In this document: positions 5,444-10,100 of the stretch, piece after piece
How positions within the stretch are numbered: position 1 is the stretch's first letter
Layout of the letters: each line of letters starts with the position of its first letter
Origin: a virus
Lineage: Duplodnaviria > Heunggongvirae > Uroviricota > Caudoviricetes
Virus record (IMG/VR): IMGVR_UViG_2693429634_000014
Location: 1 to 10,100 of that record
Length of the DNA: 10,100 bases
Direction: 5' to 3' (one strand)
Notes under the pieces: model-generated
Database searches by the model: none
What the model was told of the DNA's origin: nothing
Seen by the model: the letters and a program-made list of their open reading frames with translations, nothing else
Made by a program: the position numbers and the translations under genes

Positions 5444-8400
5444 TCAGCTGATACTGATGCCTGCGGTGGCTTTCTTCATCACCACAACCAGCAAATCGCT
5501 GATACTTGCTGTGGGATACCAGTTATTCACCAGCCATGCTGATACCGAAAACTCCAGCGTCATGTGACCGTGACCGGCAGGCATATCAATAACGCCACTG
5601 TAAATCAGCGTATTATCCAGCGCGGTACGGTTATAAATTTCAGCACCGTTTTTCCGCACTATCAGACGGCATGAGGAGTAAATATCAGTATGCTCTCTCT
5701 CATGCTTAGCGCCACTGAATGCCACCGCCGGAATAACAATCTGCCGGTCAAACGGCTGATCGTCATAAACCCTGACGGTAATGGTCCCTGATGGCCACCG
5801 CTCCGGTGCACGGGAGTCCCGGGGGAAAGCTTTGCCCACTGTTTTAACGAGATCGCCTTCAATCTGGTTGGCGGACAGTTTTCCCAGAACCCGACAGTTC
5901 TCGTTAATCGTGACGTTGTTGAGCGTCCCGGAGTTCGCATTCACGTTACCGCTAATATCGGCATTTTTCGCCGTCAGCCGCCCGTCCGGTGTCAGGGAAA
6001 ATGCCGGAGGATTACCGCCGCTGGTAATGGTGGGAGCCGTCAGGCGTTTCAGGAACACGTCGTTCATGAATATCTGATCGCCCTGACCAACAAACATCGG
6101 CTTTGTGTTGCCATTCGCAGGATTAATCATCGCAATCCTGTCTGCCGCCAGCAGCACCTGACTCTGCATTCCTGCTGGCGTATTCTCAATACCGGCACCG
6201 ATACCCGCAATATAAAGGCGTCCGTCCTTCATCTGTTGCAGCTTCACAGCCCACATGCTGTTCAGATTATTATTTGTATCAACCTGAACCTTCTGTATCT
6301 GCTGAATTGCCGCACTCTGGTCTTCCAGTTTCTTATTGACGGTCTGCGTGATTTCATTGCTGACATCCTTAATGGACGTCCTGATTTCAGCCAGGTCAGG
6401 CGCAAGCTGACCGTTATCAATCTGCGTCCACAGCTCCTGAGCCAGATGGGTTTTCCCTATCTCGCCTTTGAAAAAATCCAGATAACCGGATGCATCATCA
6501 CTCGGCTGACCAACAGCCTCCACGAATGCCGATTTGCCAACGGTGTTCACACTGCGAACGTAAAAATAATAATCATGGCCCGGTTTGATATTGATACTGG
6601 CGGCTATCCAGTACAGCCCCGTGCCAAGATAGCGCGCTGTGGTTTCAACCTTCCTGATATCGGTAATCCGCTTTTCCGAAAACCAGAACTCAAACTGTAC
6701 CGTCGGGTCATAAACGGCAAGATGCGGCGTGGCGGTTATCTGAAAATAGCCCGGCGTCAGCTCAATCCGCGACGGCGCTGCCGGTGCGGCAATCCGGAAC
6801 GATACCGACGCCGGATCGCCCAGCTGTCCCCACGCATTTACCGCCCGGACCGTCAACATGTAACGCCCCAGCGCCAGCTGCCTGAAGCGGTATGTGGTTT
6901 CCGTCGTCCGGGCCGTGCTGACCAGCCGCTCACTGCCATCGTCCGCTGTCACGGTCAGGCGAAGCAGGAAGCTCACGCCCTTCACCACCTTCGGCGTGTC
7001 CCAGCGGGCCAGTACCTGATACTCCCCGCTGTCTGCGGTGACTTCGGCAGTCAGGTGCTGCACCGCTGGCGGCGTGACACCATTCACCGTGCCGCTCTGG
7101 TCGCCGTCAAAGTGCGCCCCGTTATCCACGATGGCTTCTTTTTCCGGTACATGCTGCACGGCGGTGATGGCATACGTGCCGCCATCGTTCTCACGGATAC
7201 TCACGCAGCGGAACAGGCGCTGGCGCAGCGTCGGCAGCTTCAGCCCCCACACGCTGTATTCGGCAACGCCGTCAGGAACACGGCTCACTTTCACCTTCAC
7301 GCCGTCGGTGACGGACTGGACCTCCACGCTGACCGGATTCCCCTGTCCGTCAACCAGGCTTATCAGCGTGGTGCCGGAGGATGGCAGCGTGATTTCACGG
7401 TCGAGCGTCAGTGTCCGCGTCTGGCTGTTCACCGCCAGCACGCGCCCGCCGATGCTGATACCGGCATAGTCATCATCACAGATTTCAATGACATCGCCCG
7501 GTACATGGCGAAGCCCTTCTGCACCCACGCTGAAGTCCACGGTCTGCGTTTCCAGCAGCTCCGTTTTAATCAGCCACAGCCCGGCGCGGTGTGCCTGCCC
7601 CCGGCTGGTACAGCCAAAGGCATCCATCTTCGTGACGTTACGACCGTAACGGGCAATGGCCTGCGTATCTTCAACAAGCTCTGTCGCCGTCTCCCAGCCG
7701 TTATCCGGGTCAATCCAGTTCACCTCAACGGCATTATGGCGGTCCTTCAGGGCGCTGAAGCTGTAGCGGAACGGCGCGCCATCATCCGGCATCACCACAT
7801 TACTGCGGTTATAGGTCCACACCTTATCCGACGGTCGGTCCTGCACGAACGTCAGCGTCTGCCCGTTCCATACCGGCATACAGCGCATCGCCGAACAGAA
7901 ATCACTGAGCACATCCCACGCCTTACGCTGTGTGGTCAGGTAAGCGTTACAGGTGATGCGCGGCTCCGTGCCACCAAAGCCATCCGGCACTGACTGGTCG
8001 CAGTACTGGCCGATGACATACAGCGCCCATTTGTCCACATCCGCCGCACCAAGACGCTTCCCCATGCCGTAGCGTGGATGGGTCAGCATATCCCACAGAC
8101 ACCAGGCCATGTTATTGCTGTATGCTGGCTTAAACGTTCCGTCCCAGATACCGCTGTATTGCCGAGTCTGCGGGTTATAGTTCGACGGCACCTGCAGAAT
8201 ACGCCCGCGCAGATGATAATTACGGCTCACCTGCTGGCTGCCGAACTGCTCCGAATCCACCTGTACGCCGACCAGTGCCGTGTTCGGGTAGCACTGTTTC
8301 ACATCGATGATTTCGGTGTATGACGACCAGAGCGTTTTGTTCTGCAGCTGGTCTGTGGTGCTGTCCGGCGTCATCCTGCGCATCCGGATATTGAACGGGC

Positions 8401-8923
8401 GCGGCGGCAGGTTACCCACCACCACCGATGCTAGATACTGTGAGGTGGTTTTGCCTTTAATGGTGATGTCTTTTTCCGTCACCCAGCCACCATTACGCTG
8501 TATCTGAACCAGCAGGCGGACTTCCGACGGATTCCGGTCCCCCTTTGAGGTGGTTTCCACCAGTGCCTGCACACCGAAGGTAAAGCGCAGACGGTCGATG
8601 TTTGCCGACGTGATGGTCCGGGTAATCGGCGTGTCGTACTTCACTTCCGTACCCAGCACCGTCTCGGAGCCGGAGGATTCAAATCCCTCCGGCGGTGTCT
8701 GCTCCTGCTCACCGGCCCGGAACACCACCGTGACGCCGGATATATTGGTATTCCCCTCACTGTCCAGCACCGGCGTACTGTTCAGCAGCACGCTTTTTAA
8801 TCCATCCACCGGACCTTCAACCGGCCCTTCGCTGATGGCATCGATCACACTCAGCAGCTGCGTGGACTTCAGGTTGTCCTTCGCTTCGCGCGGGGTATGC
8901 CCCTTACTGCTTCCTTTACCCAT
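5444..8923 (-). CDS. J: Host specificity / central tail fibre protein J (tip attachment protein), 1159 aa
   Basis: Translation begins [34 protein letters not shown]... and is near-identical to lambda J for roughly the first 820 residues as I recall it, then becomes mosaic and divergent over the C-terminal receptor-binding region. GAGG ribosome-binding site 6 nt before the ATG at 8923. The 585-aa plus-strand ORF 6236..7993 is antisense noise. Confidence 0.95.
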
Positions 8924-8940
8924 TCCTCACACTCCATAAA

Positions 8941-8965
8941 CAACAAAGCCGCCCAAAAGGCGGCT
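8941..8965 (-). terminator. Rho-independent terminator downstream of the lipoprotein gene, just upstream of J (minus strand)
   Basis: Seen in sequence: AGCCGCC (8947..8953) caaaa GGCGGCT (8959..8965); on the minus strand the hairpin is followed by TTGTTGTTTAT. About 25 nt after the lipoprotein ORF stop. Confidence 0.5.
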
Positions 8966-8989
8966 CATGAGTTACGGCAGGATTAACTA

Positions 8990-9328
8990 TTATTTACATG
9001 CATTAACACTATCAGCAAAAATTTTTGGCGTTAATGCTGGTACACGTTCATAAAGAGTAAAACTACTGCCATTTCCTGCTTTTTTGATATCAAGCACAAC
9101 ATCATATCCCCCCATAGCCTGTGGAACTAAAAGGCTTACCTCATTCTCAATAGGAAGGGATGTTATAGGTGTTCCATTACCAGCCCATTGTCTGGATATG
9201 CAGCCTGACAATTCATCAATATTTTTTAATGAATTACCTTCCATTACAGGTTTTCCGGATTTTACGTAATCCAAAGATTTACATCCTGTTAAGGCAATAA
9301 TCGTGCAGAATAAAATCGTTTTGTTCAT
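8990..9328 (-). CDS. Small predicted outer-membrane lipoprotein (112 aa precursor, about 97 aa mature) inserted between tail genes I and J; function unknown
   Basis: Seen in sequence: ORF 8990..9340, with the internal ATG at 9328 giving MNKTILFCTIIALTGC-KS..., a classic signal peptide plus lipobox (L-T-G-C) with Lys at +2 (not the Asp inner-membrane retention signal). Two further Cys in the mature part (SGCISRQW and C-terminal NACK). Gene and flanks are visibly AT-rich against GC-rich tail genes; it has its own downstream terminator. Lambda has no gene between I and J, to my recollection. Confidence 0.6.
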   Translation of the reverse strand: MNKTILFCTIIALTGCKSLDYVKSGKPVMEGNSLKNIDELSGCISRQWAGNGTPITSLPIENEVSLLVPQAMGGYDVVLDIKKAGNGSSFTLYERVPALTPKIFADSVNACK

Positions 9329-9400
9329 ATAGCTAACCAATAGAATAATTATCAGTGTTCGATATAAATATTAAATCAGTTAGAACATGAGTAAATAATA

Positions 9401-10042
9401 TTACCGCCCAATTACCACAACCTGACCACCATCCCCTTCATCTGCCGTGCTGATCTCCTGAGATGCCACACGTGACCCCACGCGCATTTCACCGTACAGA
9501 ACAGGCAGGACATTGCCCTGGGCAACCATGTTATCCAGTGAGGAGAAATAGGTGTTCTGTTTGCCGTTATCCGTTGTCTGTGTACGTGGAGTTTTGGGTT
9601 TAGGGGCCAGCATCTGTGCGACACCACCAAGCGTCATCGCTGCCCCCATAGAAAAGAGAATGTTACTGAAAGCGATACTGATTCCTGGCATCCAGATTGC
9701 CGTAGCAATCAGCGCCGCACCCAGCACTGCCTGAAAAACACCACCACTTTTGGCACCCGCCAGACGCGGTACGATGTGGATCACGGCACCATTTGCCAGC
9801 GGCTCATTAAGACGGGCAGATAATTCGTTTTCGCCTGCATCACGCCCGGCAATGCGCACCTGATACCAGCCCTCATTCAGTTTCTGGCGAAACGCCGGGA
9901 GCTGTGTGGCCAGCGCCCGGATGGCTTCGGCCCCCGTTTTCACACGAAGGTCGATGCGGCGACCAAATCGTTGTAAATCCCCGTAAAGGCAGATGCGTGC
10001 CATGCCTGGTGACGCCAGAGGGAGTGTGTGCGTCGCTGCCAT
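9401..10042 (-). CDS. I: Tail assembly protein I, 213 aa
   Basis: Translation MAATHTLPLASPGMARICLYGDLQRFGRRIDLRVKTGAEAIRALATQLPAFRQKL...KTPRTQTTDNGKQNTYFSSLDNMVAQGNVLPVLYGEMRVGSRVASQEISTADEGDGGQVVVIGR is near-identical to lambda I at both ends as I recall it, with a diverged and shorter central hydrophobic segment. Confidence 0.9.
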   Translation of the reverse strand: MAATHTLPLASPGMARICLYGDLQRFGRRIDLRVKTGAEAIRALATQLPAFRQKLNEGWYQVRIAGRDAGENELSARLNEPLANGAVIHIVPRLAGAKSGGVFQAVLGAALIATAIWMPGISIAFSNILFSMGAAMTLGGVAQMLAPKPKTPRTQTTDNGKQNTYFSSLDNMVAQGNVLPVLYGEMRVGSRVASQEISTADEGDGGQVVVIGR

Positions 10043-10100
10043 TTGTCGGTGTACCTCTCTCGTTTGCTCAGTTGTTCAGGAATATGGTGCAGCAGCTCGC
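9964..10100 (-). CDS. K: Tail assembly protein K, C-terminal fragment (5' end off-window), overlapping the start of I in another frame
   Basis: Seen in sequence: minus-strand frame open from the window edge (…ELLHHIPEQLSKRERYTDKWQRRTHSLWRHQAWHASAFTGIYNDLVAASTFV*), ending at TGA 9966..9964 and overlapping the I start by about 80 nt. Lambda K and I overlap similarly. Identity inferred from position; I cannot confirm the K C-terminal sequence from memory. Confidence 0.5.

Follow-up and report, generated by a model that had tools for sequence, protein, structure and literature searches.

The tail end of a lambda-like Escherichia coli prophage raises the question of what a small AT-rich gene for a lipoprotein, lodged between the otherwise adjacent tail genes I and J, might be doing there. 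The DNA analyzed here, which we call the window, comprises 10,100 nucleotides (positions 1 to 10,100 of the IMG/VR record IMGVR_UViG_2693429634_000014), with the tail genes running on the minus strand. An initial annotation had proposed that the product of this gene might mask the receptor recognized by the adjacent J protein or serve superinfection exclusion, or might equally be a virulence or membrane-fitness factor. On our analysis it is near certain that the gene is a lipoprotein moron, and the evidence speaks against the specific receptor mask; a superinfection-exclusion role of another, putative kind is possible.

The interval between I and J spans 477 bp (8924-9400), coinciding exactly with the one singled out in the initial annotation. 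It is bounded by the tail assembly gene I (9401-10042, minus strand), which is listed with 213 codons and matches the Pfam family Lambda_tail_I (PF06805, E 4.3e-24); the identical locus of TB354 has it annotated as 'tail assembly protein', and in relatives the start chosen by RefSeq is shorter. From the stop codon of I an AT-rich leader of 72 bp (9329-9400, minus strand), which was the object of our promoter scans, leads with a poor Shine-Dalgarno sequence to the ATG of the lipoprotein open reading frame (8990-9328, minus strand). This frame has 112 codons plus stop and the translation MNKTILFCTIIALTGCKSLDYVKSGKPVMEGNSLKNIDELSGCISRQWAGNGTPITSLPIENEVSLLVPQAMGGYDVVLDIKKAGNGSSFTLYERVPALTPKIFADSVNACK; a TTG four codons upstream of the ATG is a possible alternative start, and the stop codon TAA (8990-8992, minus strand, from the reading-frame list and translation) has an in-frame TAG next to it. 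The N-terminus of the product reads MNKTILFCTIIALTGC followed by KSLDY, and codons 1-15 (9284-9328, minus strand) encode a signal peptide, MNKTILFCTIIALTG, that conforms to the PROSITE lipoprotein rule PS51257 in having Lys3, the hydrophobic core TILFCTIIAL and an L-T-G lipobox before Cys16, with the regular expression matching residues 6-16. The claim of a 112-codon lipoprotein with Lys at position +2 after this cysteine is thereby borne out. The mature protein, to which we applied alignments, an AF2 model and an allele table, corresponds to codons 16-112 (97 residues; 8993-9283, minus strand).

In E. coli, lipoproteins without Asp at +2 avoid retention under the Lol rule and are sorted to the outer membrane. 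At this position the members of the family have A, S, T, K, V, G, E, L, M or Y and never D. A lipobox is present in 114 of 123 family members, and among those 114 none has Asp at +2 while 109 have exactly two further cysteines. When 38 members, 21-55% identical to the window protein, are aligned, no column is invariant apart from Cys16, Cys43 and Cys111, with Pro27, Lys35, Trp48 and Gly63 conserved in at least 90% of the members and MGGYDVVLD and YER standing out as conserved motifs of the mature domain. The AF2 model (pLDDT 83) presents a domain of two helices and an antiparallel sheet, and on this model the mature part would be a compact alpha+beta fold in which the two further invariant cysteines are placed for a predicted periplasmic disulfide. 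Taken together, these sequence features point to a Lol-sorted outer-membrane lipoprotein with a periplasmic domain probably held by one disulfide.

The gene is, as judged from sequence comparisons, genuine. That it goes beyond a chance open reading frame follows from a full-length match to PHROG 914 (function 'unknown'; E 1.3e-30, residues 1-112 against positions 1-118 of a 118-position profile), from homologues with about 50% identity in Klebsiella, Enterobacter, Kluyvera and Jejubacter that retain the whole signal peptide together with the sequence GCKSLD, and from pairwise ratios of nonsynonymous to synonymous substitution rates (dN/dS) of 0.1-0.28, obtained with dS saturated. The retention of the signal peptide in homologues also indicates that the 112-codon reading is the right one and that the 84-residue product called in TB354 is a mis-start. 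RefSeq is inconsistent on this same gene: in TB354 (locus L002, 12091-12345) the protein begins at Met29 and lacks the signal peptide, and in the O104:H4 strain 2009EL-2071 (locus L100, 9091-9429) it has the full 112 residues (WP_001332187.1). A cluster of 134 shortened, 85-residue 'partial' entries for the lipoprotein also exists. Among 60 E. coli-type copies 56 are intact, three are frameshifted and one is cut, and the alleles differ from each other by single residues only. The window carries one of the rare alleles, with Glu at position 63 (codon 9140-9142), a residue that sits in a turn between two predicted strands; Glu63 occurs in two of the 60 loci, and Gly is found in 56 of the 58 copies whose reading frame extends across this codon. 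This allele may represent a mildly impaired variant.

No Pfam match at E <= 1 and no NCBIfam match was obtained for the window protein, and searches with PADLOC and against PDB sequences were equally negative, which agrees with the earlier remark that the mature sequence belongs to no named family. When the 38 members were scanned with Pfam, NCBIfam and PADLOC, the Pfam lipoprotein-attachment family LPAM_1 matched six of them; beyond that there were only weak, scattered matches to unrelated families (best E about 0.005) and a weak match to the VirB7 signal peptide. The cluster names of ten distant members are all 'hypothetical' or 'putative lipoprotein', and a second database search added a single label from JGI, 'YceK', which we take to reflect the signal peptide. 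A search of the literature by accession yielded nothing. The family is, then, already catalogued as PHROG 914 and has been noticed as a moron, in that the depositors of phiKO2 labelled its gp19 'putative moron gene product', without ever having been characterized; lipoprotein morons near tail genes are as such familiar.

We compared the I-J junction with its counterparts in other prophages. The lipoprotein gene has a GC fraction of 0.36 as against 0.57 in the 2-kb flanks, and in 200-bp steps the value is 0.29-0.40 in the insert and 0.55-0.60 on either side; a GC content below that of the flanks is also the trend in nearly all phage-borne relatives inspected. Where E. coli prophages have the same J start and no insert, the I-J spacer measures 60 bp instead of 477 bp, and the insert is present in only 331 of the 987 genomes sharing the J start. 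When the window is aligned with two such insert-free loci (L084 and L085), identity extends to the stop codon of I and resumes at about position 8969. From the length of the spacer and this three-way alignment it follows that some 430 bp, roughly 8970-9400 on the minus strand, are extra DNA standing in place of about 17 bp. The AT-rich insertion between I and J described at the outset is therefore real, and two of the marks by which morons are recognized, namely extra DNA between otherwise adjacent genes and a deviating base composition, are found here.

The initial annotation had also credited the gene with a hairpin terminator of its own, and this holds only in part. A terminator scan, folding statistics and alignment with the insert-free spacers all bear on a hairpin, GAGCCGCC-TTTTG-GGCGGCTT, followed by TGTTGTTTAT (8936-8966, minus strand), which together resemble an intrinsic terminator; the 9-bp stem with its T-run is located at 8946-8966 on the coding strand, 13 nt before the start codon of J. 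A stretch of 63 nt containing it folds with a minimum free energy of -22 kcal/mol (z -3.65). The insert-free I-J spacers possess a homologous hairpin in the same place before J, AAACCGCC-TGCG-GGCGGTTT, and between these spacers (1525-1585 of L084 and L085) and the window the stem displays a compensatory exchange of G:C for A:T. Hence the hairpin with its T-run is present as claimed, but it belongs to the I-J junction itself and not to the insert in particular. Its maintenance with and without the insert, together with the compensatory stem change, suggests that the structure is under selection, perhaps as a terminator or as an element of RNA processing or stability within the late operon. In nearly all of the phage-borne relatives inspected, in whichever slot, a GC-rich hairpin with a T-run is found about 10-40 nt downstream of the family gene, and the depositors of phiKO2 annotated the hairpin after gp19 as a terminator.

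The distribution of the family was examined in genomes, contigs and protein collections. A profile search of 1.84 billion representative sequences recovered 119 clusters at E <= 1e-3, nearly all of them 105-125 residues long; three of the representative matches (P0079, P0111 and P0121) are long, repetitive proteins of biased composition and were discarded as spurious. Of 5426 complete E. coli genomes, 337 contain the E. coli form, defined by 95-100% identity at the DNA level; it occupies 347 places, of which 346 are on chromosomes, and it lies between I and J in every locus examined. Its carriers include the O104:H4 strain 2009EL-2071 as well as the type strain of the species E. coli (DSM 30083 = ATCC 11775), whose copy is 99.7% identical. 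Elsewhere the genomic context, sampled through twelve contig look-ups and 69 IMG/VR loci, differs. The commonest position is the slot between K and I, which the family gene occupies in prophages of Klebsiella, Kluyvera, Hafnia and Yersinia, in Fraca, LMessi and phiKO2 and in several metagenomic contigs, with identities down to about 26%. In Enterobacter prophages it lies between the gene for the tail chaperone T and the tape-measure gene, and one distant member is located at a prophage end beside integrases. The scan of genome contigs for the family returned one locus only. The family genes are always on the strand of the tail genes, and their hosts range from Escherichia to GC-rich bacteria. 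This spread over several slots of the tail module indicates a mobile accessory cassette that favors the tail-tip modules of siphophages.

Accessory insertions in general seem to concentrate at the K-I-J junctions. Small unannotated open reading frames of 89-94 codons are seen beside the lipoprotein gene or beside I in some relatives (L001, 5725-5994; L096 and L097, 4655-4939; L010, 1158-1439), and in Yersinia a whole Arc/Bro/antirepressor block stands between K and the lipoprotein gene. A member from Shimwellia blattae (CP001560.1; L011, 6001-6339) with 37% identity lies between a YidB-like gene and the ecotin gene, near copCD-yebY. A host gene of the Shimwellia type may be the kind of source from which the phage copies were drawn.

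A protein that masks the receptor of the adjacent J would be expected to remain linked to the cognate receptor-binding protein, and a comparison of the gene with the C-terminal type of J had been suggested along with the masking proposal. The J gene of the window (5444-8923, minus strand; identified from the reading-frame list and the TB354 annotation) encodes the tail tip or host specificity protein in 1159 codons. In 35 loci with a complete J downstream of a lipoprotein at least 97% identical to that of the window, on which this typing rests, the C-terminal 200 residues of J form four clusters (24, 6, 3 and 2 loci). Between the types the identity is 51-69%, except that one, the end of a J of 1084 residues, is unrelated and shows no detectable similarity to the others. 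The first 400 residues, by contrast, are nearly always 97-100% identical among lipoprotein-bearing loci. The tape-measure proteins of gene-bearing loci are 60-100% identical, a range that speaks neither for nor against co-variation. As far as these sequences go, the N-terminal 400 residues of J travel with the lipoprotein gene, as expected of simple linkage, and the C-terminal receptor-binding end does not. The converse comparison gave the same answer. The J C-terminal type of the window (at least 95% identity) was recovered from at least 52 phage records, VT1-Sakai, PPompW and many Stx2a phages among them, whereas a protein search of the same collection of 50,697 phage records for the lipoprotein recovered only Fraca, at 30% identity. 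Likewise, the last 603 nt of J are found at 95% identity or more in at least 2269 complete E. coli genomes, as compared to the 337 that have the lipoprotein gene. In most relatives, moreover, the family gene lies away from J, the J proteins concerned ranging from 1067 to 3433 residues, and in Fraca, which has a family member of its own, a gene annotated as cor follows J. The suggested co-variation thus fails in both directions, and this evidence argues against a mask tailored to the receptor of this J, without disproving exclusion as such.

The signals for expression of the gene bear on its possible role in the lysogen. In a consensus-based scan, which weak or non-sigma-70 promoters can escape, no sigma-70-like site on the minus strand upstream of the lipoprotein gene reached the threshold; the best candidate in the leader, TTTACT-16-TAATAT, agrees with the consensus at 8 of 12 positions and is equalled by 60% of shuffles of this AT-rich stretch. 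The same kind of scan upstream of 16 family loci detected no recurrent promoter. In several relatives only about 32-40 bp lie between K and the lipoprotein gene, leaving no room for a separate promoter. The ribosome-binding site of the window, ttggttagctatATG, is poor, most relatives having sites of the GGAG type; this weak site is common to all E. coli copies, in which the whole insert is 95-100% identical. It is safe to state that the lipoprotein gene is transcribed with the late tail operon, and its position on the late-operon strand together with the want of a detectable promoter of its own implies that the product appears at least in lytic growth, along with the tail proteins. A true moron is marked by being expressed in the lysogen (PMC3594210).

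Comparison with characterized systems helps to narrow the possibilities. The phiKO2 protein gp19 is a member of the same family: the window protein is 30% identical to that of Fraca, which in turn is 48.6% identical to gp19 over the full length, and the window protein and gp19 have in common a length of about 111-112 residues, the lipobox, two further cysteines, a position in the tail-tip block and a hairpin after the gene. The difference lies in the slot, which is K-I in phiKO2 and I-J in the window. A second point of reference is gp15 of HK97, the first moron to be described, which is encoded between the tail chaperone and tape-measure genes and brings about exclusion without blocking a receptor (PMC3594210). 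Like the lipoprotein studied here, gp15 is a small envelope protein from an insert in the tail operon, and the Enterobacter members of our family use the very same slot (PMC3594210). Its block to entry rather than to receptors matches what the missing co-variation with J suggests for the window, and both have bacterial homologues outside phages, YebO in the case of gp15 and the Shimwellia gene in that of the lipoprotein. In contrast to the latter, gp15 is an inner-membrane protein of the YebO family, is no lipoprotein and bears no sequence relationship to it; furthermore, prophage expression and exclusion activity have been demonstrated for gp15, whereas the window protein is known from its sequence alone.

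Small lipoproteins from phage structural gene clusters have repeatedly been found to exclude phages, as illustrated by Lpp021 and Lpp010 (PMC11893012) and by Llp and Rtp45 (PMC12685063). Of the mEpimmI proteins, Lpp021 excludes phages dependent on OmpA and Lpp010 those dependent on LamB (PMC11893012), and Cor, of phi80, N15 and HK022, is another phage-encoded exclusion lipoprotein (PMC3594210). The three resemble the window protein in being lipobox lipoproteins from the structural gene cluster near J. They differ in that their precursors have 72-82 residues and are encoded downstream of J, with Lpp010 and Lpp021 on the opposite strand, and in that they act on the receptor used by a phage group (FhuA, OmpA or LamB). 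Profile alignments (hhalign) with the three cover 17-28 columns, comprising the signal peptide, the lipobox and, for Cor, about a dozen further residues. We accordingly reject the idea that the mEpimmI exclusion lipoproteins belong to the same family, given their other positions and strands and the restriction of the alignment to the signal peptide. T5 Llp and Rtp45, receptor blockers for which complexes have been solved, are outer-membrane lipoproteins of siphophages that face the periplasm and prevent re-adsorption as well as superinfection, and a structure of LptDE with Rtp45 is deposited as 9RPS (PMC12685063). Mature Rtp45 has about 6 kDa (PMC12685063) as against 97 residues in the mature window protein, and the linkage to a cognate receptor-binding protein implied by the receptor-blocking model is not seen for this gene. 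Likeness to these two was tested through PDB sequences only, without a match, and which exclusion-protein chains that copy of the PDB contains is unchecked.

In terms of structure, the closest solved fold is that of Flpp3, deposited as a virulence determinant of Francisella tularensis, and the further neighbors include the helix-grip lipid-binding folds START, Bet v 1, CoxG and Aster. No Pfam match to DUF3568, the family of Flpp3, was found, and with Flpp3 and the N-terminal domain of BamC the identity is 6-9% and no motifs are shared. The fold is a common one, also seen in KA1, DUF302 and START-like domains, and so no function follows from it.

Given these observations, we tentatively favor the view that the accessory lipoprotein blocks the entry of other siphophages at a step independent of receptor type, a reading to which we would accord somewhat less than even chances. 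A moron-like accessory cassette inserted between I and J of a lambda-like prophage would encode a lipoprotein of the PHROG 914/phiKO2 gp19 family, whose signal peptide is predicted to be of the Sec/LspA type and whose Cys16 would be acylated as the first residue of the mature protein. Produced at least together with the tail proteins in lytic growth, the lipoprotein would, once in the envelope, most likely bind either a host envelope component or a component of the incoming tail tip in the periplasm. Such binding may hinder the entry of other siphophages whatever surface receptor J uses. By analogy, this block would be akin in its logic to that of HK97 gp15 and unlike that of Cor or Llp, acting from the side of the outer membrane. 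It is a good deal more doubtful, in our estimate improbable, that the family constitutes a new class of outer-membrane lipoproteins that block a receptor-independent periplasmic step of siphophage genome delivery, for instance by capturing the emerging assembly of tape measure or tail tip below the outer membrane. The broad exclusion of lambda-like phages expected on that reading would explain how the gene rides in tail-tip modules and yet ignores the receptor-binding end of J.

Several observations weigh against receptor-independent entry blocking. Neither experiment nor homology connects the gene with an exclusion protein: PADLOC returned no match for the window protein, the family profile found no match at E <= 10 among 177,635 PDB sequences, and the mature domain aligns in hhalign with none of Cor, Lpp010 and Lpp021. 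Structural likeness does not go beyond generic helix-grip lipoprotein or lipid-binding domains (Flpp3/DUF3568, the BamC N-domain, KA1 and START-like). The Shimwellia homologue is chromosomal and lies next to ecotin, away from any phage genes. That the lipoprotein gene is dispensable is evident from its absence in most prophages of this J type, and the allele in the window combines a poor ribosome-binding site with the replacement of a glycine conserved in at least 90% of members by glutamate. Finally, no sigma-70 promoter above chance was detected upstream of the gene, here or in relatives, which leaves the prophage-state expression needed for protection of a lysogen unsupported.

Among the alternatives the one that survives best, though we consider it rather unlikely, is that the gene serves lysogenic conversion or host fitness, either as a Bor-like factor of serum or stress resistance or as a lipid- or ligand-binding envelope protein that alters the outer membrane. 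The company of the gene is in keeping with such a role, as the same prophage end carries lom (4777-5376, minus strand, from the gene listing of the window) and a full-length type III effector of the NleB/SseK family, an arginine glycosyltransferase (1971-2951, minus strand; PF24688, E 1e-170), and the effector EspK is also encoded in the identical TB354 locus. The resemblance to the virulence determinant Flpp3 and to many helix-grip lipid-binding neighbors, the existence of a chromosomal homologue outside prophages, and the prophage-end position beside integrase seen in the family, which is the classical position of conversion genes, tend in the same direction. Against this, the fold similarity is generic at 6-9% identity, promoter evidence for expression in the lysogen is wanting, and neither the window protein nor any of the 38 members matches the Pfam family Lambda_Bor (PF06291) that would place it with lambda Bor and Iss, or, beyond LPAM_1 and the scattered weak hits, another family. 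Moreover, the recurrent position in tail modules across hosts suggests a phage-related role rather than one in the niche of a particular host.

The same position would suit a helper of the lytic cycle of the phage itself, which would condition the envelope for lysis and release or neutralize a periplasmic host factor and have no role in the lysogen. The gene is on the same strand as, and tightly packed into, the late tail operon, with no promoter detected. However, most close relatives of this prophage do without the gene although their tail genes are the same, and thus it is not needed for growth; apart from one locus it also has no link to lysis genes, and we know of no precedent for such a helper encoded in tail modules. 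We regard this explanation as unlikely.

That the lipoprotein masks the outer-membrane receptor of the adjacent J, in the manner of Llp and Cor on FhuA or of Rtp45 on LptD, so as to protect the lysogen or to keep progeny from re-adsorbing to debris, now has only a slim chance of being correct. It drew its appeal from the location of the gene directly upstream of J in the window, from the fact that known blockers are encoded next to receptor-binding protein genes (PMC12685063, PMC11893012), and from transcription with the late operon, which would suit the protection of progeny at lysis. Against it speak the association of one lipoprotein with J ends of four types, among them one without sequence relationship to the rest, the at least 7-fold excess of the J type over the gene in E. 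coli genomes, and the at least 52 phage records with that J type set against a single distant lipoprotein relative. The separation of most relatives from J, in the K-I and chaperone-tape measure slots, and the coexistence with Cor in Fraca count further against it. In addition, the mature protein of 97 residues exceeds Rtp45, at about 6 kDa, and the other known blockers in size, and it has neither an alignment of its mature part with Cor, Lpp010 or Lpp021 nor a matching PDB chain.

Quite unlikely, in our judgment, is a decaying passenger that is functional in the family and poorly expressed or impaired in this window: the weak ribosome-binding site relative to other family members, the rare Gly63Glu (2 of 60 loci), the frameshifts in 3 of 60 related copies and the insertion sequence (IS) and intron insertions that riddle the prophage would fit it, but the reading frame is intact here and in 56 of 60 copies, the alleles differ by single residues, dN/dS lies well below 1 throughout the family, and the weak ribosome-binding site is common to all E. 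coli copies. The frequency of the order K-x-I might bring to mind a partner of the NlpC/P60 protein K, acting as its immunity protein or inhibitor; this was set aside, as the adjacency to K is broken both here and in Enterobacter. Protein K is also not known to be part of mature lambda tails.

Beyond lom, the remainder of the window is composed of tail fiber, effector and mobile-element genes. The side tail fiber gene (3399-4718, minus strand), recognized in a domain scan by its collagen repeats, has a long collagen-like Gly-X-Y block with GC up to 0.71 between N-terminal and C-terminal prophage tail fiber domains, and in TB354 an element of the IS66 family interrupts the equivalent region. 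The NleB-family gene stands downstream of the tail fiber genes, a typical locus for effector cargo, and its DNA has 28-39% GC. Next come, according to the reading-frame list, orfA of an IS3-family transposase (1330-1656, minus strand) and an orfB of only 159 codons (851-1330, minus strand). Within this element Rfam recognizes the ALIL frameshift pseudoknot (RF01497, 1259-1375, 119 bits). In TB354 the IS3-family element is intact, with 1214 nt, between espK and an espO fragment. Positions 1 to about 850 of the window match, at 100% identity, the 3' part of a group II intron (the region of the ltrA reverse transcriptase/maturase), which is present on chromosomes and plasmids in 2567 of 5426 complete E. 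coli genomes. The intron directly adjoins the truncated orfB, and so its insertion site appears to have been the IS3-family element.

The lipoprotein gene is thus common and has no assigned function, recurring in prophages of Klebsiella, Enterobacter, Kluyvera, Yersinia and Hafnia and in Fraca and phiKO2, and in some annotations a RefSeq start at an internal Met hides its signal peptide. The negative result of the comparison with J leaves room for a receptor-independent mechanism of exclusion. Should the product be a host-fitness factor instead, it would add one more cargo gene to those of effector-carrying prophages. If it does block entry independently of the receptor, it would be a lipoprotein counterpart to HK97 gp15, and its presence would matter for the prediction of phage host range and for phage therapy against Enterobacteriaceae.

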